NCBI GenBank assembly: GCA_030603385.1
Contig: JAUVXW010000001.1
Coordinates: forward strand, 64,001 to 128,000
DNA length: 64,000 nt
From: Promethearchaeota archaeon
GTDB lineage: Archaea; Asgardarchaeota; Lokiarchaeia; Sigyniarchaeales; SOKP01
Reading direction: 5' to 3'
The translations under genes and the position numbers were made by a program. Shown here in pieces: positions 2,819 through 14,411 of the stretch (position 1 is the stretch's first letter; every line of letters starts with the position of its first letter). Under the pieces are notes generated by a model. That model was not told the origin of the DNA. It worked only from the letters and a program-made list of their open reading frames with translations, and ran no database searches.

Positions 2819-3856
2819 ATGGCTACTGACATTAATTTAACTCTGATCATAGTCTTAATAGTTATGGCGATTGCACTCGCCTTCTCGATCGGCTCCAATG
2901 ACGAGACACTTGCTGCAATGGTCGGCGCTGGCGTCCTCAAATTTAAAATTGCTCTAATTGTAGGAGGTGCCGCAATAGGTTCTGGTATGATTCTTTTTAG
3001 TGGGGGTTTTGTTCCTGAAACAGTAGGTAGAAGTCTTTTAGGTGAAGGTTTAGAATCAAAATATACTAATATTATGCTCTTAGCCGTACTGATAAGTAGC
3101 ATTACATGGTTAGTAATAGGTAGTTTTGCCGGCATTCCCTTAAGTAGTACTCACTCTTTAATTGGTAGCATTGTTGGAGTAGTGATAGTATATGCAATCT
3201 TTCAAGGTGGGGTTGATCTTAATAATGCATTTAACTATGATAAGTTAAGAGATGTAGTGTTAAGCTGGTTTATATCCCCATTATCTGGCTTATTAATAAC
3301 ATATGTTCTCTTTAAAATCAGTGCTAAGTTATTTTTATCTCGTCTCAGAGGTCTTAATCAGATAGAAAAATCTGAAAAATCTTTTAAATGGTTATTATTT
3401 ATTGCAGTTATATTTGCCGAAATCTGGGTTGGAGCTAATTCTGGGGAAGCTTTAGGTATTCTTTTAGGTCTTAGAGAAAATAATTCTATAACCAATGGTC
3501 AATACCTATTCTTTGCAATTTTCTGCGGGATTTTTGCTTTCCTTGGCATTTATTTTGCGGCACGATATGTAATCCGAAATTTGGCTTCCTATATGATAGA
3601 TACGCGTCCTAGCGAGGGATTTATTATTCAAATAAGTTCTGCTATAATTCTAATGATTGCCACACTTTTGGCTCTCCCAATTAGTCACTCACATGTAATA
3701 GTATTTTGTATTATTGGTTTAAGTCTCGCTCAAAAGAAAGAAATAGACTATAGAGGTTTGGGTAAAATGGGACTCTATTGGGTTCTTACATTTCCAATAG
3801 CTGCTTTTTTAGCAGGATTTTTATATTTTATTTTTAGTTCATTTGGATTATCATGA
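2819..3856 (+). CDS. pit: Inorganic phosphate transporter, PiT family
   Basis: Multi-TM; GSND and GANS signature variants, GIPLSSTHSLIG and LPISHSH motifs. Confidence 0.88.
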   Translation: MATDINLTLIIVLIVMAIALAFSIGSNDETLAAMVGAGVLKFKIALIVGGAAIGSGMILFSGGFVPETVGRSLLGEGLESKYTNIMLLAVLISSITWLVIGSFAGIPLSSTHSLIGSIVGVVIVYAIFQGGVDLNNAFNYDKLRDVVLSWFISPLSGLLITYVLFKISAKLFLSRLRGLNQIEKSEKSFKWLLFIAVIFAEIWVGANSGEALGILLGLRENNSITNGQYLFFAIFCGIFAFLGIYFAARYVIRNLASYMIDTRPSEGFIIQISSAIILMIATLLALPISHSHVIVFCIIGLSLAQKKEIDYRGLGKMGLYWVLTFPIAAFLAGFLYFIFSSFGLS

Positions 3857-3936
3857 TAAATGTTAAAAAGAAAAAAAAAATATATAATAATAACTGAAAC
3901 AATATGGTGGTATAAATAGGGTCTTTAATTGAATTT

Positions 3937-4599
3937 TTGAAAAGAGAAACTGCTGTCAATGCTTTAGAAAAATCCGTTAAACATGCTCAAATAGTTCAAG
4001 AAACTGTAAAGAATTTAGATGCAGGTTTACAGATTTTATTGAAAGAAAAAGATGTTGAAAAGTCACATAAACTATTTCATAAAGTTGATGTTTTAGAAAG
4101 AGATGCAGATAACTTAAGAAGAAAAATCCAAAAAGATATTTCAAGAGGAGAATTAAATCCAAGCGTAAGACAAAATTTATCACATTTAATTAAAAGGATG
4201 GATGATGTTGCAAATTGCAGTACAGGTGTTGCACGTAGAATTAATACAATTCCTTTGAAATTTTGGGAGGAAAGTAGTAAAGAAACAATTGATTTAATAT
4301 TAGAAATGATGAAAACTACCGTTGACTGTGTTCAATTTCTAGATAAAATCGTACTCGATTTGCTCGAGGAAAGAAAAAATATAATGAAATTCTCCACACA
4401 AATAAATCAGCTTGAGCATACAGTAGATCTGCTTAATATTGAATTGAGAAAAAATCTCCAAGAAACCGAATATACTGTAAATTTTTTTACGATTTTCACA
4501 GCTGGAAACGTATTTGACATTTTAGAAGCAATATCAGATTCAATCGAGGGTGTTGCAGATTATATTTTGGTACTATTAACAAGCGCAGAAAGATTGTAA
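3937..4599 (+). CDS. DUF47 (PhoU-like) phosphate transport regulator
   Basis: LERDADNLRRKI, MDDVAN, LEHTVD and ISDSIEGVAD repeats typical of DUF47; adjacent to pit. Confidence 0.85.
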   Translation: MKRETAVNALEKSVKHAQIVQETVKNLDAGLQILLKEKDVEKSHKLFHKVDVLERDADNLRRKIQKDISRGELNPSVRQNLSHLIKRMDDVANCSTGVARRINTIPLKFWEESSKETIDLILEMMKTTVDCVQFLDKIVLDLLEERKNIMKFSTQINQLEHTVDLLNIELRKNLQETEYTVNFFTIFTAGNVFDILEAISDSIEGVADYILVLLTSAERL

Positions 4600-4651
4600 C
4601 TTTGTATTAAAGGTTAGATTTATTAATGGATAAAAGAAGAATTAGTTTGAA

Positions 4652-6226
4652 TTATATTAAACTTTGACCAACAACACTCTTATGAGGCATCTTCCCTAAC
4701 ATTTTTAACAGAGTTGGAACAATGTCAGTTATTTTACAATAAGAAATATGTTTATGTGGAATTTCTGGAGATCCCCCGATAATCAACGGAACGTTCATAC
4801 ATTCTCTTATACCCCTATCATGATTATAGATATTTTTATTCCCTTTTTTACCATTTTTTAGATTATAAACTACTGATCCATCATTGCTTAAAATTATATC
4901 GGAGCTTCTAGGATTTTTAAAATGACGGGGTATTAAATCGGAGTACATTGGATAATCAAGGTGGTATGTAGCACCTAACCATTCTTGAATGGTGTGAAAT
5001 TTGTTATCCATTAATTTGCTAGCATTTTCGTCGTTTGAGTAATCGAAAATATCGGTATCATCATTTTCCATAATGTATCTTGTTTTATAATTATTACCCA
5101 TACCGGAATATTCAATAGCACCGGAAATTATTTTTTTTGATTTTTTATTCTTCTTCTTTAAATGAATAATTCCCTTGTTGACTGTATTTTTTTCATCTCT
5201 ATAGTACATTAAATGGCTGCCTTCAATTTTGAATAAGTCTTGCAGTAAATTTATTTTTTTAGGACCATATCTTTCTAATTCTTTAACAGTGGGATGAGAC
5301 CAACTATTTTTTACATCAGAATTAGTATTTCCTTTAAAATTAAAGAAGCCAATTCCGTCATATTTCGCTAAATTCATATTTCCCCGTAAATTCCTTCGAG
5401 GATGATAATGAGTTAGTTTATTTGCTTTAAAAAAATCAAATATCTTACCATATCTTTCTGCTTTATAATTTCCATGATCGGAAACAATTGCTATCGCAGT
5501 ATCATCTAAATATCCCATTTTATCCAAACTCTCAACTAATAGACCAATTACTTTATCAATATGCAAAATATTTAATTTATAGATTTGCGAATTGAACCCA
5601 AAAATATGTAATAAAATGTCAGGTGTCATAAACCATAATAATGATGCAACTGGAGGTTCAGAATCTTTAATAAATTTTTTTGGTTTTTTAAAAGTGTCAA
5701 TTAGCTTTTTTACTACACCAGTATCAGCTCTGGCCATCATTTTCTTTATATTTCGTGAATAGTATAAAGTTAGATAAAACATAGCAAGTTTAGTTTTTCT
5801 TTCTGGAAAAAAATACTTTGATCCCCGGCTGACAAACTGAGCAATACTAGCAGTCTTCCCATCTCCAACCATTTCAAGAATGGTTTTGCATCTGTTTCCA
5901 AGATCTTTATTTAACTTATATATTTGTAGATTTTTGGCAGTGTAATCTCTTAAAAATGGAGGGGCAATATCACGACCCATCCAATTCATTAACGGTACAC
6001 CATGACAGAATTCTTTACGGTAATCACCAGTGTATGTCCCTGTTACTAATGAGACATGAGTTGGAAAAGTAATAGGTGGAAAATCAGTTATGCAATTCTT
6101 GGAATAAATCCCATTTTCCATCAATTTCTTTATGTTAGGGAGCAATCCTTTTTCTATAAAATTAAATAGAAGGTCAGATCTTACATTATCAATTATGCAG
6201 TAGATAATCCTATTTATCTTATTCAT
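4652..6226 (-). CDS. Alkaline phosphatase superfamily (nucleotide pyrophosphatase/phosphodiesterase-like) protein
   Basis: IDNVR, PPITFPTH (Thr nucleophile), PDILLH, SDHG and ITDIVPTLL motifs. Confidence 0.85.
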   Translation of the reverse strand: MNKINRIIYCIIDNVRSDLLFNFIEKGLLPNIKKLMENGIYSKNCITDFPPITFPTHVSLVTGTYTGDYRKEFCHGVPLMNWMGRDIAPPFLRDYTAKNLQIYKLNKDLGNRCKTILEMVGDGKTASIAQFVSRGSKYFFPERKTKLAMFYLTLYYSRNIKKMMARADTGVVKKLIDTFKKPKKFIKDSEPPVASLLWFMTPDILLHIFGFNSQIYKLNILHIDKVIGLLVESLDKMGYLDDTAIAIVSDHGNYKAERYGKIFDFFKANKLTHYHPRRNLRGNMNLAKYDGIGFFNFKGNTNSDVKNSWSHPTVKELERYGPKKINLLQDLFKIEGSHLMYYRDEKNTVNKGIIHLKKKNKKSKKIISGAIEYSGMGNNYKTRYIMENDDTDIFDYSNDENASKLMDNKFHTIQEWLGATYHLDYPMYSDLIPRHFKNPRSSDIILSNDGSVVYNLKNGKKGNKNIYNHDRGIRECMNVPLIIGGSPEIPHKHISYCKITDIVPTLLKMLGKMPHKSVVGQSLI

Positions 6227-7316: not shown

Positions 7317-10307
7317 TTGCCGAGTCCAAGAAAAGGAAGAAATAAAAAAGCTGAAGATCAAATTCAAAAATCATTATTTTCCTTTGTTGATGAAAAAGAA
7401 AAGGAGAAGAAAGAACCAGCAGAAGAGTCTAAGAAAGAGCAAATTAAAGCCTTAGAAAAAGAAAAACCAATTGAAAAAGCTACGACTACTGAAGAAGAGA
7501 AAATTGTAGAAACTCAATCAAAAGAAAAACCTGAAATAAAAAAAATCTCTCAAATCTCCTTCTTTAAAGAAAAAGATGAGCCCTTTGGATTAATGGAAAG
7601 TAATATAAAGTTAGAAAAAGTCCTCAGAGAAGGAGTAACCTCAAAATATATCCGTTATTTGATTGCAAAGGGAGAAATAGTCGAGAATTTAGATAGAGGA
7701 TTATTACTGGATGTTGATTATGATGGTGGACAAAACAAAGCATTTTGTAAATTCTATGATTTAGACACTGAGGATATAAAGATTTGGATTGATACAACTG
7801 AGCATGAACCTTATTGTTTAAGTAAAGAGCCAATTTCCGAATTAGAAAAATTATATTATTCAGAAAAAATTGGACAAACGAAGCAGAAAAAGAAATTAAC
7901 CGATTATGTGGGATTCAAGCGATTCGAGGAAATAAAACGATTTGATTTATTAAAAGATAAAGAAATTAAAATGACAAAGCTATACGGTGATACTCCTATA
8001 GATATAGGGGGCTCCGGAACGAATCTTCGTAATATCTTAAATGAAAATAAAAAGAAGGCGTGGGAAGCAGATATACGGTATCATTTAAACTATATCTTTG
8101 ATAGACAACTAATCCCTGGGTTAATTTATAGCATAAAAAATGGGAAACTTGAAATATTAGATTTTGAGAAAATTGATGATAATTCTAAAAGAATGGCTGA
8201 CGAGCTTCGAATTCTATTTAAAGACGAAGCTCCAGAAATTCAAGAATTCTCTGAGAAATTTTTAAATATCTTTATTACGCCTATCCCTGATGTCAAGCGT
8301 GTGGCTATGGATATAGAGATTAAAATAGGTGAAAAAGATTATAGAATTCCTGATCCACGTTCAGCTAAACAAGAAGTTATCAGTGTATCGTTTGTAGCTA
8401 CTGATGGATTAAAAGTAGTGTATATGCTTGAACGAGAAGATTATAGTTTTGAAAAACTTCATGAAGAATTTCCCTCAGATGCAAGAATTGTTCTCTTTAA
8501 ATCTGAAAAGGAATTAATTACAGAAACGTTTCGGCTCCTATGGAAATATCCTGTTGTTATAACTTTTAATGGCGACAATTTTGATTTAAACTATCTATTC
8601 CATCGAGCGAATGAAAAATTGAAGATTAATAGAGATTTAAATCCTATTCATGTAAAGCGAGGTTTTGGAATCTTATCAAAAGCAGAGTGCGATTTAAGAA
8701 GCGGAATTCACATTGACGTATTTAATATATTCTTTAATAGAAGTATTTCAGGATATGCATTTGGAGGTGTTTATGAAAGTGCTTCTCTCAATGCCATTAG
8801 TGCTGCCTTATTGGGAGAAGAAAAGTATCAACATGAGGAACTAATTCATGAAATGGAATTTGATATTCTTTCATGGTATAATCTTAAAGATTCCATATTG
8901 ACACTAGATCTTACGAAGTTTAACAATTCTCTCGTTTGGAACCTGATAATTCTATTATGTCGAATAACAAAAATGCCAATCCATGATATGGTGCGAAGGC
9001 AGATTTCAACCTGGATACAAAATATTTTTTATTTTGAACACCGTAGAAAAGGTTATCTAATTCCTCAACGGTCAGAAATAAGAGAATTAAAAGAAGGGGG
9101 AAAATTATCATCTAAGACTAATGATGAAAAATTCATGGGAGCCTACGTTATTCCTCCTGTTCCTGGAATTCATTTTGATGTTGTTGTCATGGATTTCGCC
9201 TCACTTTATCCCTCTATAATTAAGGAATATAATCTTTCTTACGAAACAGTTTTATGTCGTCATAAAGATGATGAGGATAATCTAGTCAAGGGGACTCCTT
9301 ATCATATATGCACGCATAAAATGGGAATATTTGCTTATGTAGTCGGCTTTTTCCGTGATATTAGGGTAAAGTATTTTAAACCAAAATCAGGCGATAAAAG
9401 CTTATCAGAAAAACAACGTAGTTATTACCAAACAATCCAACAAGCGCTTAAGGTTTTTATTAATGCTTCCTACGGAGTCTTTGGCTCACAAAACTTCCCT
9501 TTGCTTTGTTTACCCGTAGCAGAAAGTATTACAGGAATCGGACAGTATTCTATTAAGCAAACAATCAAAAAAGCTAAAGAATTAGGTGTAGAGGTTTTAT
9601 ATGGGGACACAGATTCAATTTTTCTTAAAAACCCTACAAAAGATCAAATGAAAGAAATATCCGATTGGAGTAAGAAAGAATTAGATTTAGATTTAGAAGA
9701 AGAAAAAACATATCAATTCTTAGCCCTTTCTGAAAGAAAAAAGAACTATCTTGGTATATATAAAGACACTAAATATGTTGACAAAAAGGGTTTAGTTGCT
9801 AAGAAGAAAAACACTCCCGAATTTATCAGAACTGTATTTAACGAAGTAATTGAAATCTTAAAAAATATCAATAATAATGAGGATTTTTTGAAAGCACGAA
9901 AATCTATTATTGATATTATTAAAATAAACAGAAAAAAAATAGGTAAAGAGGGTGAATTCAACTTAGAAGACTATTCGATTAATATAAGTATGCAAAAATC
10001 ACTTAAATCTTATGAGAAAACGATCCCCCAACATGTGAGAGCTGCGTTAGAATTAAAAGCCAGAACAGGAAGAGAACTCCAAAAAGGAGACAATGTTAAA
10101 TTTATCAAAAGTAACGATAAAATTGGAGCTAAAGCGTTTGAATTGGCTAAATTTGGAGATCTAGATGTTAAAAAGTATAAAGAACTATTGAGATCAGCAT
10201 TAGAGCAGTTATTAGATGCATTAGGAATTGAATATGAAGAAATTATTTTAAAAGGATATAAAAAGAAGAAAGAAGCCGAACCAAAACATCAATCGACACT
10301 TTTTTAA
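7317..10307 (+). CDS. polB: Family B DNA polymerase (PolB1-like) with charged N-terminal extension
   Basis: ExoI DIE, ExoII FNGDNFD, ExoIII YNLKD; polymerase motifs DFASLYPS, KVFINASYG, YGDTDS, KKNY. Confidence 0.97.
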   Translation: MPSPRKGRNKKAEDQIQKSLFSFVDEKEKEKKEPAEESKKEQIKALEKEKPIEKATTTEEEKIVETQSKEKPEIKKISQISFFKEKDEPFGLMESNIKLEKVLREGVTSKYIRYLIAKGEIVENLDRGLLLDVDYDGGQNKAFCKFYDLDTEDIKIWIDTTEHEPYCLSKEPISELEKLYYSEKIGQTKQKKKLTDYVGFKRFEEIKRFDLLKDKEIKMTKLYGDTPIDIGGSGTNLRNILNENKKKAWEADIRYHLNYIFDRQLIPGLIYSIKNGKLEILDFEKIDDNSKRMADELRILFKDEAPEIQEFSEKFLNIFITPIPDVKRVAMDIEIKIGEKDYRIPDPRSAKQEVISVSFVATDGLKVVYMLEREDYSFEKLHEEFPSDARIVLFKSEKELITETFRLLWKYPVVITFNGDNFDLNYLFHRANEKLKINRDLNPIHVKRGFGILSKAECDLRSGIHIDVFNIFFNRSISGYAFGGVYESASLNAISAALLGEEKYQHEELIHEMEFDILSWYNLKDSILTLDLTKFNNSLVWNLIILLCRITKMPIHDMVRRQISTWIQNIFYFEHRRKGYLIPQRSEIRELKEGGKLSSKTNDEKFMGAYVIPPVPGIHFDVVVMDFASLYPSIIKEYNLSYETVLCRHKDDEDNLVKGTPYHICTHKMGIFAYVVGFFRDIRVKYFKPKSGDKSLSEKQRSYYQTIQQALKVFINASYGVFGSQNFPLLCLPVAESITGIGQYSIKQTIKKAKELGVEVLYGDTDSIFLKNPTKDQMKEISDWSKKELDLDLEEEKTYQFLALSERKKNYLGIYKDTKYVDKKGLVAKKKNTPEFIRTVFNEVIEILKNINNNEDFLKARKSIIDIIKINRKKIGKEGEFNLEDYSINISMQKSLKSYEKTIPQHVRAALELKARTGRELQKGDNVKFIKSNDKIGAKAFELAKFGDLDVKKYKELLRSALEQLLDALGIEYEEIILKGYKKKKEAEPKHQSTLF

Positions 10308-10339: not shown

Positions 10340-12397
10340 TCAAGATTCAATGTCATGAACTAAGATTCCGTTTGTTGAGATAAACCAGCCATTGTCAGTC
10401 TTTATATTAAAGATATCATGATTTTTCTTAATTTTTTTTATAGATTTGATTTTTACGGGAGTTGTACTATTGAATTTGAGAAGCCCCATGAATTTTCTTT
10501 TATAATGTTTTCCTTTGGTCTCTACTATGCGATGACAATTATCTGAAGGAGAAGAATTGTGAATAGAAACAAATTGCCCAATTGCTCCTAACATACTCAC
10601 TAAATCATTTTTTAATTGTTTACTTACTGTTGTAAATCTTCTTAATCCATTTGGTAATTGATCACCATCACCCTTATAGTATGCATCTAAAAAAGCGTTT
10701 ATCCTGTCATTTGTTAATAATTCAAATGGAATTCTCTTATTTTGAGCTAACTTTGAGCATAAATTTGTGGTTAATTCCATCAACATATTTGAATTTATTC
10801 TAATCATGTTATTTCCGTTATTTGTCACAGGAAAATTTAATTGTTCAAGAAGATTAATGATTTCTCTCCAGTTTTCGTAATTTTTACTTTTTGATTGGCT
10901 AATCTGAATCCTATTTTTATCTGTACTACCTTCTGAAGCATACCAACCCAAATATCTGAAGAAATCATTAGTTAATGGAACAATTGAGGAATACCAATAC
11001 CCAACTCTTTCATGAATTTTTATTAAAATTTCAATATTTTTTCTCCTCGCTTCATTTTCAAGTAATTGTCTTTCCGAATTTGATAAATTCGACCAGATTG
11101 TTCTATATATTTTAGCTACCTTAGAATATTGAAATTTAGAATTAATTAGTTGTATTAACGGATCATTGGTCTGTTGATTTGTCCTATATGAGAATTTTAG
11201 ATATTCATTCCTCTTTATTCCAACCCATCGATTCTCCCAATTTAGGAAGCTAGGAATAAAAATAAGATCTAGAACATTTGAAGAGAGTAGAATCTTATGG
11301 AGCACCAGCAAATTATCTTCTTTATTTAGATCTCGAGCCTTGGTATATTTAACATACCAATCATTTAATGTGGAATCATAGGATTTATTGCGAATTCGAA
11401 TCACCATTTTAGGAATTATTTGATCTGGAGTGCAAGTAATGTGTCTTCCATCAGATAAACGAATATTTAGTAAGTTTGAAGATTTACTTCTTGTAAAATC
11501 CCTAATATGTATAAATTTTGGAGCCCCAAATAACTTACCTTTTTTGTTGATTGATAATATTTTTAAATTTTGCCATGAATTCTCTAGAAATCCAATTTGA
11601 ACCTTGTTAACTATCCCCTTTGTATCCTTTACCACTATTTCCTCATCATAAGGAAGCCCACTTTTGATTTTCTTGTTTCTAGATTGATAACCTGAATCAA
11701 TTTCCTCAAATGGATAATTCTTTAAGTTTTTAATTATTGTAGCTTCAAATTTTGGAAGACCTTTCATTTCCCACATCTCCGAAACTAATTTAAACACGGT
11801 TTTTGTCAGCCATAATAAAAAAATTTTAACATGTGCATGATATTTTTGATCTAATTGAATTTTATTTTGCAATAATTTAAGCCAATCTTCAAATTCCTCA
11901 ATACTAAGTCTAAATAAATTTCCTAATAATTTATTGCTTATACGTTTATTAATTATTGGTTTAAGGTAATTTGCTAAATCATAGAGTAAGGATTTTGTTA
12001 GGTTCACTCGACATATGAAAGTATTTGCATTTTGTTCCCATGTTCTTATAAAAAGGTAGATTAAGCGAGAGATAACAATAATTAAATTTTCTTTAAAAAT
12101 TTGAGGGAAATCATTGTCTCCCAAAATCAAAGCTACAGAGATTTTTTGAGATTTCCTTATCTTAATGACTCTTCTAATTAAGGATTTCGTCTTTGGACCT
12201 AAATTTTCTTTTGTGTTTATAGTAATATCATTATTATGCCAATCTCTACAATTAATGCTTGAATAATTAATTTCTAATCCACAAAATTCACATAAAGCAA
12301 ATTCTTTATTTTCTGTGATTCTTTGAATGATTTCATATGGTATTTCCCAACCACAATATTTACAGAAATTTGTAGATTTTTTTCCTTTTTCGATCAT
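10340..12397 (-). CDS. Zn-ribbon + helical domain fused to degenerate intein (Hint) with LAGLIDADG homing endonuclease
   Basis: CKYC/CEFC N-terminal Zn ribbon; intein block A-like (S)GLPYDEEIVVK at aa ~246, block B GRHITCTPDQ, LAGLIDADG blocks YLGWYASEGS and AFLDAYYKGDG, blocks F/G IFNIKTDNGWFISTNGILVHD. Confidence 0.88.
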   Translation of the reverse strand: MIEKGKKSTNFCKYCGWEIPYEIIQRITENKEFALCEFCGLEINYSSINCRDWHNNDITINTKENLGPKTKSLIRRVIKIRKSQKISVALILGDNDFPQIFKENLIIVISRLIYLFIRTWEQNANTFICRVNLTKSLLYDLANYLKPIINKRISNKLLGNLFRLSIEEFEDWLKLLQNKIQLDQKYHAHVKIFLLWLTKTVFKLVSEMWEMKGLPKFEATIIKNLKNYPFEEIDSGYQSRNKKIKSGLPYDEEIVVKDTKGIVNKVQIGFLENSWQNLKILSINKKGKLFGAPKFIHIRDFTRSKSSNLLNIRLSDGRHITCTPDQIIPKMVIRIRNKSYDSTLNDWYVKYTKARDLNKEDNLLVLHKILLSSNVLDLIFIPSFLNWENRWVGIKRNEYLKFSYRTNQQTNDPLIQLINSKFQYSKVAKIYRTIWSNLSNSERQLLENEARRKNIEILIKIHERVGYWYSSIVPLTNDFFRYLGWYASEGSTDKNRIQISQSKSKNYENWREIINLLEQLNFPVTNNGNNMIRINSNMLMELTTNLCSKLAQNKRIPFELLTNDRINAFLDAYYKGDGDQLPNGLRRFTTVSKQLKNDLVSMLGAIGQFVSIHNSSPSDNCHRIVETKGKHYKRKFMGLLKFNSTTPVKIKSIKKIKKNHDIFNIKTDNGWFISTNGILVHDIES

Positions 12398-12437
12398 TTA
12401 ATTTCATTATTTACATTTATATTTAAAAAAAAATAAT

Positions 12438-12462
12438 TAGTCTTTATTATCTCTAAAGACTA
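12438..12462. promoter_or_regulatory. Inverted repeat upstream of the endonuclease gene (possible operator)
   Basis: TAGTCTTTA-N7-TAAAGACTA, about 40 bp before the start of 10340..12397. Confidence 0.3.
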
Positions 12463-12629
12463 TTAGAATTTTCTTACACCTTCGGTTATATTATGTATAT
12501 TCTCTATAGGTTTATTATTATTTTATATAAATCTAAGAAAATATTTTTTATAAAGAAGAAGAGAGAATAGAAAAACGATAAAACTGAATATATTTTTCTA
12601 CGGAATAATTATATTGAATTTAAAATAAG

Positions 12630-12914
12630 CAAAAAAACTTGGAAAATTATACCAAAGTTGTTCCTCAGCATGTTAGAGCAGCTAAAGAATTAATGAAGGT
12701 CACAGGAAAAACATATCAAAAAGGTGAAACAATTAGTTTCATCAAAAGTAAAGGGGCACTCGGAGCTAAAGCAATTGAACTTGCTAAACTCCAAGACATT
12801 GATACTAACAAATATAAAGAACTTTTAAAATCTGCTTTAGAACAGGTCTTAGATGCTCTTGGTATTACTTTTGAAGAAATTAGGGGAATTAAAAAGATGG
12901 ACGCCTTTTTCTAA
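12630..12914 (+). pseudogene. Displaced/duplicated 3' fragment of polB (thumb C-terminus with PIP-like tail)
   Basis: QKNLENYTKVVPQHVRAA...LEQVLDALGITFEEI aligns without gaps to the PolB C-terminus (53/84 identical by hand count); ends GIKKMDAFF; in-frame stop at 12621-12623 just upstream. Confidence 0.9.
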
Positions 12915-13071
12915 ATTATTTGGCAATACAAAAAAAAGAATATAATTATATGTAATTATATTATTTTGAAATGGCCATGATTCATGGACCTGATAACATA
13001 GGTTATTACACAATTTTTTTTTACCAACATTAGAAATTTAGTTGAGTTATAATATTTTTATACTAAAAATG

Positions 13072-13094
13072 TTTACTTTCTTTTTAAAAGTAAA
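13072..13094. promoter_or_regulatory. Inverted repeat upstream of the HTH/TA operon (possible autoregulatory operator)
   Basis: TTTACTTT-N7-AAAGTAAA, about 45 bp before ATG 13140; AT-rich context lowers significance. Confidence 0.3.
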
Positions 13095-13139
13095 TAGTTT
13101 AATTTAAATAATTTAAATTTTAATAGTTAATTGGATTAG

Positions 13140-13490
13140 ATGAATTTTAATCAGGATGAGATTATTAAAGAAGTTTTTGAAAAAAAGAATCAAATAAATT
13201 CTAATACATTTACCATAACACGTTTCATTTTACTCACTTTGCTTTCATATTTCATTGATGGTCTTCAATTTCGTGAGTTAAAAGCATCATTAAAAATCTC
13301 AGATGGGAATATAGCATCAAATCTTCTTTATTTAACAAAGATGGGATATATTAATAAAAATGCATTAGAATTTGATAATAAAAAATTACATTATTATACC
13401 ATTACGGAGAATGGAAAAGAAGAATTAAAAAAAATATTAAATTGGATGGAATTAATAAAAAAACTTTTGGGGGAGACTAATGATGAGTGA
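13140..13490 (+). CDS. Winged-helix transcriptional regulator (ArsR/MarR-like)
   Basis: FRELKASLKISDGNIASNLLYLTKMGYI helix-turn-helix and YTITENGKE wing. Confidence 0.85.
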   Translation: MNFNQDEIIKEVFEKKNQINSNTFTITRFILLTLLSYFIDGLQFRELKASLKISDGNIASNLLYLTKMGYINKNALEFDNKKLHYYTITENGKEELKKILNWMELIKKLLGETNDE

Positions 13491-14028
13491 AGATTTTAAA
13501 AAAGTTATTTCAGTTCTAAAATATTGGGATATGTATTTGGAACGGCCTAATAGAAATTATGGTTCTCGGTTTAAAATTCAAAAATTAACTTATTTATGTA
13601 AATCAATGGGATTTCCTCTCAAATATCAATTTACCTTATATATTAGTGGACCATATAGTACAGGATTAACCCGAGACTATTTTAATGCACCTCAATTAAT
13701 AGAAACGCTTGAAACAGATTATATTTTAAATGAAGTTGATTTAGAAATTTTAGATAAAATTAATGAATATGTGCTTATTCATCCGATCACTAATAATTAT
13801 GAATCAGAGTTTTTAGAAGCAGTATCAACAGTTGATTATTTAAAAAAAAGATATCCTGACATGTTAGATGATGAAATATTTGCAAAAACTAAAGAAGTTA
13901 AACAATATTTAAAAGATTCTATAGTTGTCATTGCTATTAATACTGTAAAAAAACTATTATTTAAACCAGAGTTCTTAACTGAAGAAGTTCAAGAGGAAAT
14001 TGACATCTGGGATAAAGCAGAAGATTAA
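13480..14028 (+). CDS. Putative antitoxin, Panacea/DUF4065(SocA)/YwgA-like
   Basis: RFKIQKLTYL...YQFTLYISGPYSTGL and LEAVSTV motifs; directly upstream of a PemK-family toxin. Confidence 0.65.
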   Translation: MMSEDFKKVISVLKYWDMYLERPNRNYGSRFKIQKLTYLCKSMGFPLKYQFTLYISGPYSTGLTRDYFNAPQLIETLETDYILNEVDLEILDKINEYVLIHPITNNYESEFLEAVSTVDYLKKRYPDMLDDEIFAKTKEVKQYLKDSIVVIAINTVKKLLFKPEFLTEEVQEEIDIWDKAED

Positions 14029-14042
14029 CATCTGGGGATATT

Positions 14043-14411
14043 ATGGAACGATGGAGAAGGTTTCAAATAAAAAGGCGAGAAATATGGGATGTTAAATTAA
14101 GTTATCCTGGTGAAGGAGTTGGCCATGAAGAAAGATTTCCACATCCTTGTATTGTTATTAAATATAACAAATTTGTGGATATGGCAACTATTATACCTTT
14201 AACGAGTAATGTACAAGCATTAAAGGATTTTCCATATACCCATATAATAAATCCTAATACTTCAAATGGTTTAACTAATCAATCAATTGTAATGATATAT
14301 CAAGTTCGATCTTTAAGTAAACAACGTTTTTTACGAAAAAAAGGGAGAGTAATAAGAGACAATTATGATAAGATTCAAACTATTTTTAAAGATTATTTTC
14401 AACTATATTAA
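14043..14411 (+). CDS. PemK/MazF-family endoribonuclease toxin
   Basis: RREIWDVKL...GHEE..PHPCIVI, IIPLTS, NGL...S.V...QVRSLSKQRF motifs. Confidence 0.85.
   Translation: MERWRRFQIKRREIWDVKLSYPGEGVGHEERFPHPCIVIKYNKFVDMATIIPLTSNVQALKDFPYTHIINPNTSNGLTNQSIVMIYQVRSLSKQRFLRKKGRVIRDNYDKIQTIFKDYFQLY

Follow-up and report, generated by a model that had tools for sequence, protein, structure and literature searches.

Why should an archaeal chromosome carry an intein-like gene that lies outside any host protein, directly behind a DNA polymerase gene and on the opposite strand? The question is raised by a single open reading frame (ORF) of 685 aa on the minus strand, at positions 10340-12397 of a 64,000-nucleotide stretch (the window) of contig JAUVXW010000001.1 from a Promethearchaeota archaeon of the class Lokiarchaeia. 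From comparisons of the ORF, its relatives and their loci, we judge it probable, at somewhat better than even chances, that this ORF is the endonuclease gene of an independently evolved archaeal homing element of the WHO type, targeting the neighboring Family-B DNA polymerase gene polB. WHO elements, described in the yeasts Torulaspora and Lachancea (Coughlan et al., 2020, PMC7282813; Osborne et al., 2026, bioRxiv 10.64898/2026.08.13.744650), pair an endonuclease gene with an alternative version of the 3' half of FBA1, an essential gene; homing substitutes this version for the resident 3' half, which persists downstream as a fragment. Their hallmarks are a 3' half that is more diverse and follows another phylogeny, endonuclease genes in either orientation, decay into pseudogenes, and absence of splicing. 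Such elements have been classed as a third category of homing element, with a range limited to a few genera of yeasts, and the literature that we searched described no WHO-type element outside yeasts.

We examined the sequence motifs of the ORF. Residues 247-685 (positions 10343-11659, minus strand; stop codon at 10340-10342) constitute a predicted non-splicing Hint plus double-LAGLIDADG unit. Homology to Hint domains appeared as a full-length alignment to true inteins (42-53% identity) and as a match of aa 248-325 to positions 2-78 of the NCBIfam model TIGR01445 (intein_Nterm); a match of aa 287-681 to Pfam Intein_splicing (E 2e-5) was under the family cut-off. Because the TIGR01445 alignment starts at model position 2 on residue 248, model position 1 (Cys) corresponds to G247, and alignment with PolB inteins likewise placed G247 at the Cys1 position of 11 true inteins. 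In the latter alignment, block A of the ORF read GLPYDEE versus CLPY[DN]EE in true PolB inteins, block B read C322-T-P-D-Q326 (T323-Q326 at 11420-11431) versus C-T-x-x-H, and IFNIKT versus VFDIET indicated the loss of the block F Asp. The C-terminus, a degenerate block G at 10343-10357, read H681-D682-I-E-S-stop in place of HN and a following Ser or Cys, and the ORF carried a 12-residue insertion after block B relative to PolB inteins. The ORF lacks the position-1 nucleophile, the T-x-x-H of block B, and the terminal H-N with Cys, Ser, or Thr that define an intein, and it is not an in-frame insertion with N- and C-exteins. Both LAGLIDADG helices nevertheless end in an acidic residue: E489 in the context WYASEGS of motif 1 (10925-10963) and D577 in the context YKGDGD of motif 2 (10661-10702), the latter within a Pfam LAGLIDADG_3 match (aa 566-628; 25.1 bits versus a cut-off of 22.5). 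Judged from these alignments, every splicing position is changed and both catalytic acids are kept. The Hint scaffold was probably retained because it serves folding and contact with DNA. The closest solved relative by sequence was PI-PkoII (PDB ID: 2cw7; E 2e-13), over the endonuclease domain only, and the AlphaFold model of the full-length ORF had a predicted local distance difference test (pLDDT) score of 39, too poor to inform on the fold.

A search of 5.8 billion proteins returned one full-length relative, P0002 (64% identity), with the same N-terminal fusion, and eight proteins of 404-488 aa that matched only residues ~245-685 at 60-75% identity. Full-length homologues at this level, together with true inteins at 42-53% identity, place the intein-like part of the ORF well beyond chance. 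More than 100 positions were invariant in the alignment of ten family members, among them E489-G490 and D577-G578 (10/10 each). Position 1 was Gly in every member reaching that position; block B was [ST]P[DN]Q in most members, the His being replaced by Gln or Leu in 9/10 and present in one (P0007). The block F Asp was replaced by Asn or Lys across the free-standing clade, and the last two residues of block G (HN, HD, HG, NN, QD, SE, HQ, or IG) were followed by tails of 1-4 residues. The ratio of nonsynonymous to synonymous substitution rates (dN/dS), computed on five coding sequences, was 0.25-0.38 overall, 0.16-0.28 in the endonuclease domain, and 0.33-0.52 in the N-terminal Hint part. The endonuclease motifs and the Hint scaffold are under purifying selection. 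An initial annotation of the ORF, made from its sequence alone, had described a complete intein-like unit with altered splicing positions, and every residue that it named (G247, TPDQ, HD-IES-stop, E489, and D577) was as stated. Its proposal that selection kept the endonuclease motifs and the scaffold after splicing was lost extends to the whole clade.

These family data bear on two rival readings of the ORF. In the first, the ORF is a decaying relic, an intein copy misplaced by rearrangement, fused by chance to a neighboring ORF, and inactive. The loss of all splicing residues, the faster evolution of the N-terminal Hint part, and one broken relative agree with decay; at least ten intact members at 60-75% identity with invariant catalytic acids, a dN/dS well below 1, and persistence of the same fusion in P0002, a 64% identical protein from an independent sample, argue against it and leave it highly improbable. 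In the second, the Hint domain still processes itself, cleaving at its N- or C-terminal junction and freeing the N-terminal module. The conserved scaffold and Ser246, just before Gly247, would suit such cleavage. However, the invariant Gly at position 1 means that there is no nucleophile, the block B His and block F Asp are lost, the terminal Asn is replaced, and most members have no N-terminal module to release, so that we consider self-processing extremely improbable.

To trace the origin of the unit, we compared it with intein-like sequences in 161 genomes of the class. The unit recurred at 41-47% identity inside ORFs of 1390-1423 aa, which were PolB genes, and the embedded copies lay between KVFING and SYGVFGS, that is, in motif B at the pol-b site, after codon 717 (window numbering). 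In the loci L053-L057, KVFING was followed by a true intein, C...HN, and then by SYGVFGS, with Cys1, C-T-x-x-H, VFDIET, and HN plus Ser or Cys all kept. Full-length identity of the unit was 42-45% to these inteins and 53% to another true intein, P0037. A HMMER search of 1.84 billion representative sequences found only 15 proteins at E<=1e-30, the best being 53% identical, and nearly all carried the unit embedded where PolB is expected. In a maximum-likelihood tree, the free-standing clade was monophyletic (100/100); it lay among inteins, with the true intein P0037 as its sister (99/98), and the window ORF and P0002 formed a derived subclade (99/96). Like the pol-b inteins, the ORF is homologous over the whole Hint plus LAGLIDADG length, with the same block order and the LPY[DN]EE of block A; it differs in lying outside polB on the opposite strand and in its replaced splicing residues. 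Descent of the Hint plus LAGLIDADG part from a PolB pol-b intein is, on these alignments and the tree, close to certain. Because its place in the tree is within the pol-b inteins of archaeal PolB, the clade appears to have originated independently of yeast WHO and HO; the tree left out the yeast sequences (VDE, HO, and WHO).

A second free-standing form was found in genome G009. Its polB (locus L056, G009:C119, 4820-11610) has its pol-b site occupied by a mini-intein of 166 aa whose splicing motifs are intact, and directly behind polB, on the opposite strand, lies an ORF of 1020 aa. The last 435 aa of this ORF are an independent non-splicing Hint plus LAGLIDADG unit, and the first 585 aa are two helical repeats of ~300 aa, unlike the N-terminal module of the window ORF. 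In the tree, this form (G009/P0040) grouped with other inteins (93/89). A single origin of all free-standing forms was considered and ruled out by the approximately unbiased (AU) test, which rejected a single clade of these forms (p 0.0098), a group named after the tree had been seen. The mini-intein and the neighboring free endonuclease, an arrangement that resembles trans-homing of a defunct element, are possibly a trans-homing pair. Inteins also occupied other sites of polB in the genus: an intein near codon 629 (motif A region) interrupted polB ORFs of 1318-1321 aa in G089 and G060, one at YGD/TDS (pol-c) interrupted those of 1333-1378 aa in G058 and G064, and L057 (G155) had inteins at both pol-b and pol-c.

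We then analyzed the gene beside which the window ORF lies. polB (7317-10307, plus strand; 996 aa) matched Pfam DNA_pol_B (E 7.5e-47) and DNA_pol_B_exo1 (E 3.5e-22), was 74-86% identical to its orthologues in the genus, and contained no intein. This gene and the endonuclease gene are tail-to-tail, with 32 bp between their stop codons. The ancestral pol-b insertion point, in the motif B sequence K-x3-N-x-S-Y-G, is at 9465-9470 (codon 717, GCT, Ala; codon 718, TCC, Ser). Beyond the endonuclease gene, at 12629-12914 on the plus strand, we found an orphan fragment, of which 12639-12914 encodes a 91-aa copy of a PolB C-terminus (codons 893-983 with the native tail ..KKMDAFF). The orphan was 60-61% identical to the tail of the resident polB and, over all 91 aa, 80-87% identical to the PolB C-termini of 25 endonuclease-free genomes of the genus. 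The genes p137 and p360, which follow the orphan in the window, follow native polB in several genomes (G082, G088, G098, and others), and p360 directly follows polB in other endonuclease-free genomes. These matching C-termini and shared downstream genes indicate that the orphan is the displaced native tail and that the resident tail is imported.

Segment-wise identities located the change within polB. Versus the native allele of G082, DNA identity was 97% over codons 780-799 and 58-67% after codon 860; versus the endonuclease-bearing allele of G061, it rose to 87-88% after ~codon 860. The window tail (codons 845-983) was 85% identical to that of G061 and 66% identical to native alleles. By these comparisons the window polB is a mosaic, native-like to ~codon 840-845 and foreign beyond ~845-862, with the junction (codons ~845-862) at 9849-9902 and the imported 3' end, a type A tail with a Lys-rich extension, at 9903-10307. 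Across alleles, codons 845-983 fell into discrete types at 55-76% identity, whereas codons 660-839 were 78-98% identical. In addition to the native type, we distinguished type A (window and G061), type B (G105, L112, L115, and G049), and type C (G053). The native tail is short and ends in ..KGIKKMDAFF, the type A tail is Lys-rich and reads ..KGYKKKKEAEPKHQSTLF (window tail at 10230-10307), and the type B tail reads ..SSLETLEFQKLDGFI.

The same layout recurred wherever it could be compared. The endonuclease gene lay tail-to-tail behind polB in all eight loci with enough flanking sequence (the window, G061, G105, G049, G053, and the metagenome contigs L112, L113, and L115), and the independent free form of G009 did likewise. 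An orphan was kept in six of the eight, beginning at codon 844 in G105, 888 in L113, 893 in the window, 926 in L112, 928 in G049, and 944 in G053. True-intein polB alleles had no orphan, and p360 directly followed polB. The locus therefore presents what a WHO-type element comprises, namely a free-standing intein-related endonuclease gene without exteins beside a host gene, a chimeric host gene, and a displaced 3' fragment; it lacks the C-terminal zinc finger and the shared descent with yeast WHO, HO, and VDE.

Based on this arrangement, homing would proceed as follows. The enzyme would cut polB alleles that lack the element, at the pol-b site (717/718) or near the junction (~840-862), and the break would be repaired from an occupied chromosome. 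Repair would copy the resistant polB tail together with the endonuclease gene, and the tail native to the recipient would end up downstream as an orphan, able to provide right-hand homology in the following round. Splicing would not be needed, since polB would remain functional throughout. At a later stage, the N-terminal module was captured from a separate polymorphic family with LAGLIDADG, HNH, GIY-YIG, and other C-termini that matched no known type; it would most likely act as an added nucleic-acid-binding or targeting domain, the least supported step of the scheme.

Two candidate cleavage sites were considered. The ancestral pol-b site, codon 717/718, is an even prospect as the target. Codon 717 was GCN or TCN, that is, not Gly, in 8/8 endonuclease-linked alleles and GGN (Gly) in 21/25 native alleles (Fisher p 3.6e-5, from related genomes that are not independent samples), and it was GGN in local intein-bearing alleles as well; the altered codon in linked alleles possibly confers self-immunity. 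The occupied pol-b site of G009, with its mini-intein and a free endonuclease behind polB, also points to this target. Against it, codons 718-840 of the window polB are not donor-like. The mosaic junction or the sequence just upstream of it (codons ~840-862) appears a less probable target, although still a substantial candidate. It follows from the logic of WHO elements, in which the cut marks the beginning of the fragment: codon 844 is the start of the longest orphan, and the window crossover lies at ~845-862. Against it stand the scattered orphan starts and an adjacent conserved motif that varies alike in native alleles. Substitutions in the conserved EFIKKVF (codons 835-841) were also considered as resistance changes and rejected, the same variants being present in endonuclease-free native alleles.

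Several observations weigh against a WHO-type element. G061 has the endonuclease gene and no orphan. In G103 and G055, a type A tail and an orphan from codon 871 flank two other genes in place of the endonuclease, which implies that tail replacement does not strictly need this endonuclease. Endonuclease and tail identities were discordant (67% versus 85% between the window and G061; 80% versus 59% between G049 and G053). The scatter of orphan starts (codons 844, 871, 888, 893, 926, 928, and 944) implies that orphans do not mark one site, and Ala at codon 717 also occurs in distant intein-bearing PolBs and in four endonuclease-free native alleles, which makes the Ala or Ser of linked alleles a weak pointer. 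The homing mechanism is moreover drawn wholly from comparative anatomy, and it would require chromosomes of these archaea to meet.

The layout of G103 and G055, the missing orphan of G061, and the discordance between endonuclease and tail keep alive a reading in which recombination or integration at a general hot spot, the 3' end of polB, brings in varied cargo (toxin-antitoxin modules and genes without assigned family) together with a replacement polB tail, the endonuclease being one such passenger rather than the driver of tail swaps. The enzyme would then act on some other target, or would be confined to the old pol-b site and act on it in trans, in the manner of free-standing phage endonucleases that lie beside their target genes; the altered pol-b site in 8/8 linked alleles suits the old site better than the tail junction. 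Extra cargo between the endonuclease gene and the orphan, with only weak Pfam or PADLOC hits, fits this reading (four genes in G105 and one each in G049 and G053), as does a toxin cassette beyond the orphan in the window. This cassette, between the orphan and p137 (13140-14411), encodes a winged helix-turn-helix protein (HTH_34), a 182-aa protein weakly resembling the DarG antitoxin, and a PemK/MazF toxin; G082, the nearest native relative, has only ~45 bp there, so the cassette represents an insertion of its own at this hot spot. However, no integrase or other recombinase was seen in the small inserts behind polB, and the duplicated polB segments, at 120-420 bp and ~60% protein identity, are unlike att sites. 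Eight of eight endonuclease loci and an independent second lineage also share exactly this position. A homing cycle is expected to include loss of the endonuclease gene once the element is fixed, and such loss could account for G103 and G055, where a search for an endonuclease remnant behind polB (to E 50) found none. The two genes in these genomes (L108 of G103, 3234-5367; L109 of G055, 11823-13956) encode proteins of 373 and 336 aa that are 93-96% identical between the genomes and had no family match beyond a weak BrxF hit; the pair may be another kind of tail-swapping element. On balance, we consider a mere passenger unlikely.

The distribution of the gene bears on whether the host has taken it over. 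Whole-genome searches found the free-standing endonuclease gene in 5/161 genomes of the class and 3/54 of the genus, and the copy behind polB in L115 (SDBV01093147.1, 986-1912) is a pseudogene with residues 29-158 deleted and a frameshift. Relatives of either half of the ORF were looked for on viral contigs, and none was found. The initial annotation had called the ORF a domesticated intein, and a host function such as programmed cleavage, regulation of polB, or defense, as for HO in yeast, could account for the intact ORF, its purifying selection and kept catalytic residues, the gain of a Zn-ribbon domain as in HO, and the toxin-antitoxin genes among the neighbors. Purifying selection is, however, equally expected of an active selfish endonuclease, the gene is always tied to swapped polB tails, and no conserved partner or target locus was seen besides polB. 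Patchiness, a pseudogene, and swapped, hypervariable tails are marks of a selfish mobile element rather than of a host function, and we regard domestication as very unlikely; in this respect the annotation did not hold. Its comparison with HO and WHO proved closer than it had proposed, extending to a position behind a host gene whose 3' end has been replaced and left as a fragment, and its suggestion of convergence with the yeast systems agreed with the tree.

As in WHO elements, then, a free-standing intein-related LAGLIDADG gene without exteins or splicing lies just downstream of an essential gene, here in the opposite orientation, which is also possible in WHO; the 3' part of the host gene is an element-borne version, the old fragment lies downstream, 3' diversity far exceeds 5' diversity, presence is polymorphic, and some copies are pseudogenes. 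The differences are also clear. The hosts here are archaea and polB rather than yeast and FBA1, the ancestor was an intein of the same host gene (pol-b) rather than of another gene (VMA1), and only the last ~140 codons are replaced rather than half the gene. Clusters of several endonuclease genes were not seen in these loci, and the zinc domain is an N-terminal ribbon in one subclade instead of a C-terminal finger in all members. The origin is independent, and cleavage is here a prediction. The ORF resembles HO of Saccharomyces in being an intein-derived Hint plus LAGLIDADG protein without splicing or exteins, fused to a zinc-binding domain; HO, in contrast, is fixed in its clade and serves mating-type switching, whereas the window gene has a patchy distribution and is linked to swaps of the polB tail.

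Other mobile systems share single features with this locus. In polymorphic toxin loci of the contact-dependent inhibition (CDI) and Rhs types, C-terminal displacement combines a conserved 5' part with an exchangeable 3' part and leaves orphan modules downstream. The displaced 3' end behind polB is comparable, as are, in spirit, the many C-termini of the N-terminal module family, although those loci encode secreted toxins with immunity genes and the present one involves an essential polymerase gene with a presumed homing nuclease as driver. Intronless or collaborative homing, as for F-CphI and psbA, is counted among free-standing endonucleases beside their targets. Phage free-standing endonucleases such as T4 mobE (PMC2790892) likewise lie beside the presumed target and spread by co-conversion of flanks; they are HNH or GIY-YIG enzymes, not derived from inteins, and leave no displaced 3' fragments of the target.

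Next, we focused on the N-terminal module (N-module; aa 1-235, positions 11693-12397), which consists of a C4 zinc ribbon (aa 12-40, 12278-12364; C12, C15, C36, and C39 in CKYC-x20-CEFC), a basic linker, and a helical domain (aa 83-230). The N-terminal 245 aa matched no family in Pfam or NCBIfam. Proteins of 457-892 aa began with a sequence 46-60% identical to residues 1-230 and were otherwise unrelated; the parts that followed comprised at least 12 types, including two LAGLIDADG types, HNH, GIY-YIG, a type ending in a TFIIB repeat, and several without assigned family. The module was present in 56/161 genomes of the class in 1-6 copies, with a single copy in the genome of the window. In seven genomes, the N-module gene followed a conserved gene set that included prenyltransferase-like and trypsin/CARDB genes; these loci (L062, L064-L067, L072, and L074) have the N-module nuclease gene after genes for a prenyltransferase-toroid protein of 1010-1030 aa and a trypsin plus CARDB protein of 590 aa. 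Different C-termini (LAGLIDADG, HNH, or unassigned) at this one locus in different genomes suggest exchange of C-terminal cassettes. A WHO-like layout was considered for this home locus and rejected, as 3' fragments of the trypsin/CARDB gene were not found there; the home locus itself was not found in the genome of the window.

The range of C-terminal partners indicates that residues 1-235 are a shuffled module and not an extein. This agrees with the initial annotation, which had recognized no intein host in aa 1-245 and suggested searching that part alone for fusions to other nucleases. An N-extein resembling transcription factor B (TFB) was considered, because the N-module relatives P0019 and P0024 end in a TFIIB repeat, and was rejected: besides the diversity of C-termini, only the Zn ribbon aligned with TFB. 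An hhalign comparison with 10 TFBs of these genomes aligned the ribbon only (38 columns, probability 52%) and found no match to cyclin repeats in aa 1-245, and Pfam Zn_Ribbon_TF gave E 0.27. TFB paralogues with TFIIB repeats numbered 6-9 per genome in the genus, with 12-18 repeat matches each. AlphaFold modeled the helical domain (residues 90-230) with pLDDT >85 and the ribbon less confidently. Fold searches with the N-module gave no clear relative: the best Foldseek hit versus the PDB had E 0.41, the best hit of VIA-align wide had Z 5.8, a profile search of PDB sequences had no match, and ESM Atlas scores were 0.83 or less.

Only 2/10 family members (window and P0002) carry the N-module, so the Zn-ribbon N-terminus, which the annotation had presented as a feature of the nuclease, reads from the tree as a late fusion within one subclade. 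In P0016 and L119 (G065:C146, 3291-7061), this N-module or a distant relative of it is fused to other intein-like units (Intein_splicing plus LAGLIDADG_3) that end ~20 residues or less from the C-terminus; N-modules and non-splicing intein relatives have therefore been joined more than once. An extra N-terminal domain was gained in both escapes from polB, the N-module in the window subclade and helical repeats in G009. By analogy with the zinc finger of HO and WHO, the chances are about equal that the N-module is a DNA-binding or targeting domain or that it has some other role.

The region 5' of the endonuclease gene, between its start and the orphan, is an AT-rich spacer (12398-12638) that, as read from the sequence, presumably contains the promoter. 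It includes a putative TTTAAATA-like box ~25-32 nt 5' of the endonuclease ATG and a 9-bp inverted repeat (TAGTCTTTA .. TAAAGACTA) at 12438-12462.

A broader proposal, that Asgard archaea harbor a homing element of a third class, which splices neither RNA nor protein and was known only from yeasts, which originated at least twice from an intein of the gene it parasitizes, the replicative-type polymerase gene polB, and which drives turnover of the clamp-binding C-terminal tail of PolB, with the N-module as a portable targeting domain of a family of LAGLIDADG, HNH, and GIY-YIG nucleases, seems to us evenly balanced. If the archaeal counterpart of WHO is real, the path from intein to free endonuclease to replacement of the host 3' end would be a repeatable one and not a yeast oddity. 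Natural intermediates line up along it: the pol-b intein, the mini-intein with a free endonuclease in G009, the endonuclease with a swapped tail, and the fusion to the zinc module. The element would offer a source of new long-target LAGLIDADG enzymes whose target probably lies in a known gene, and it draws attention to an uncharacterized domain of 230 residues that precedes many nuclease types in Lokiarchaeia. Finally, it would explain the hypervariable C-terminal tail of Asgard PolB, and, if the last residues of PolB bind the sliding clamp, tail swapping would change the clamp-binding motif of the polymerase.

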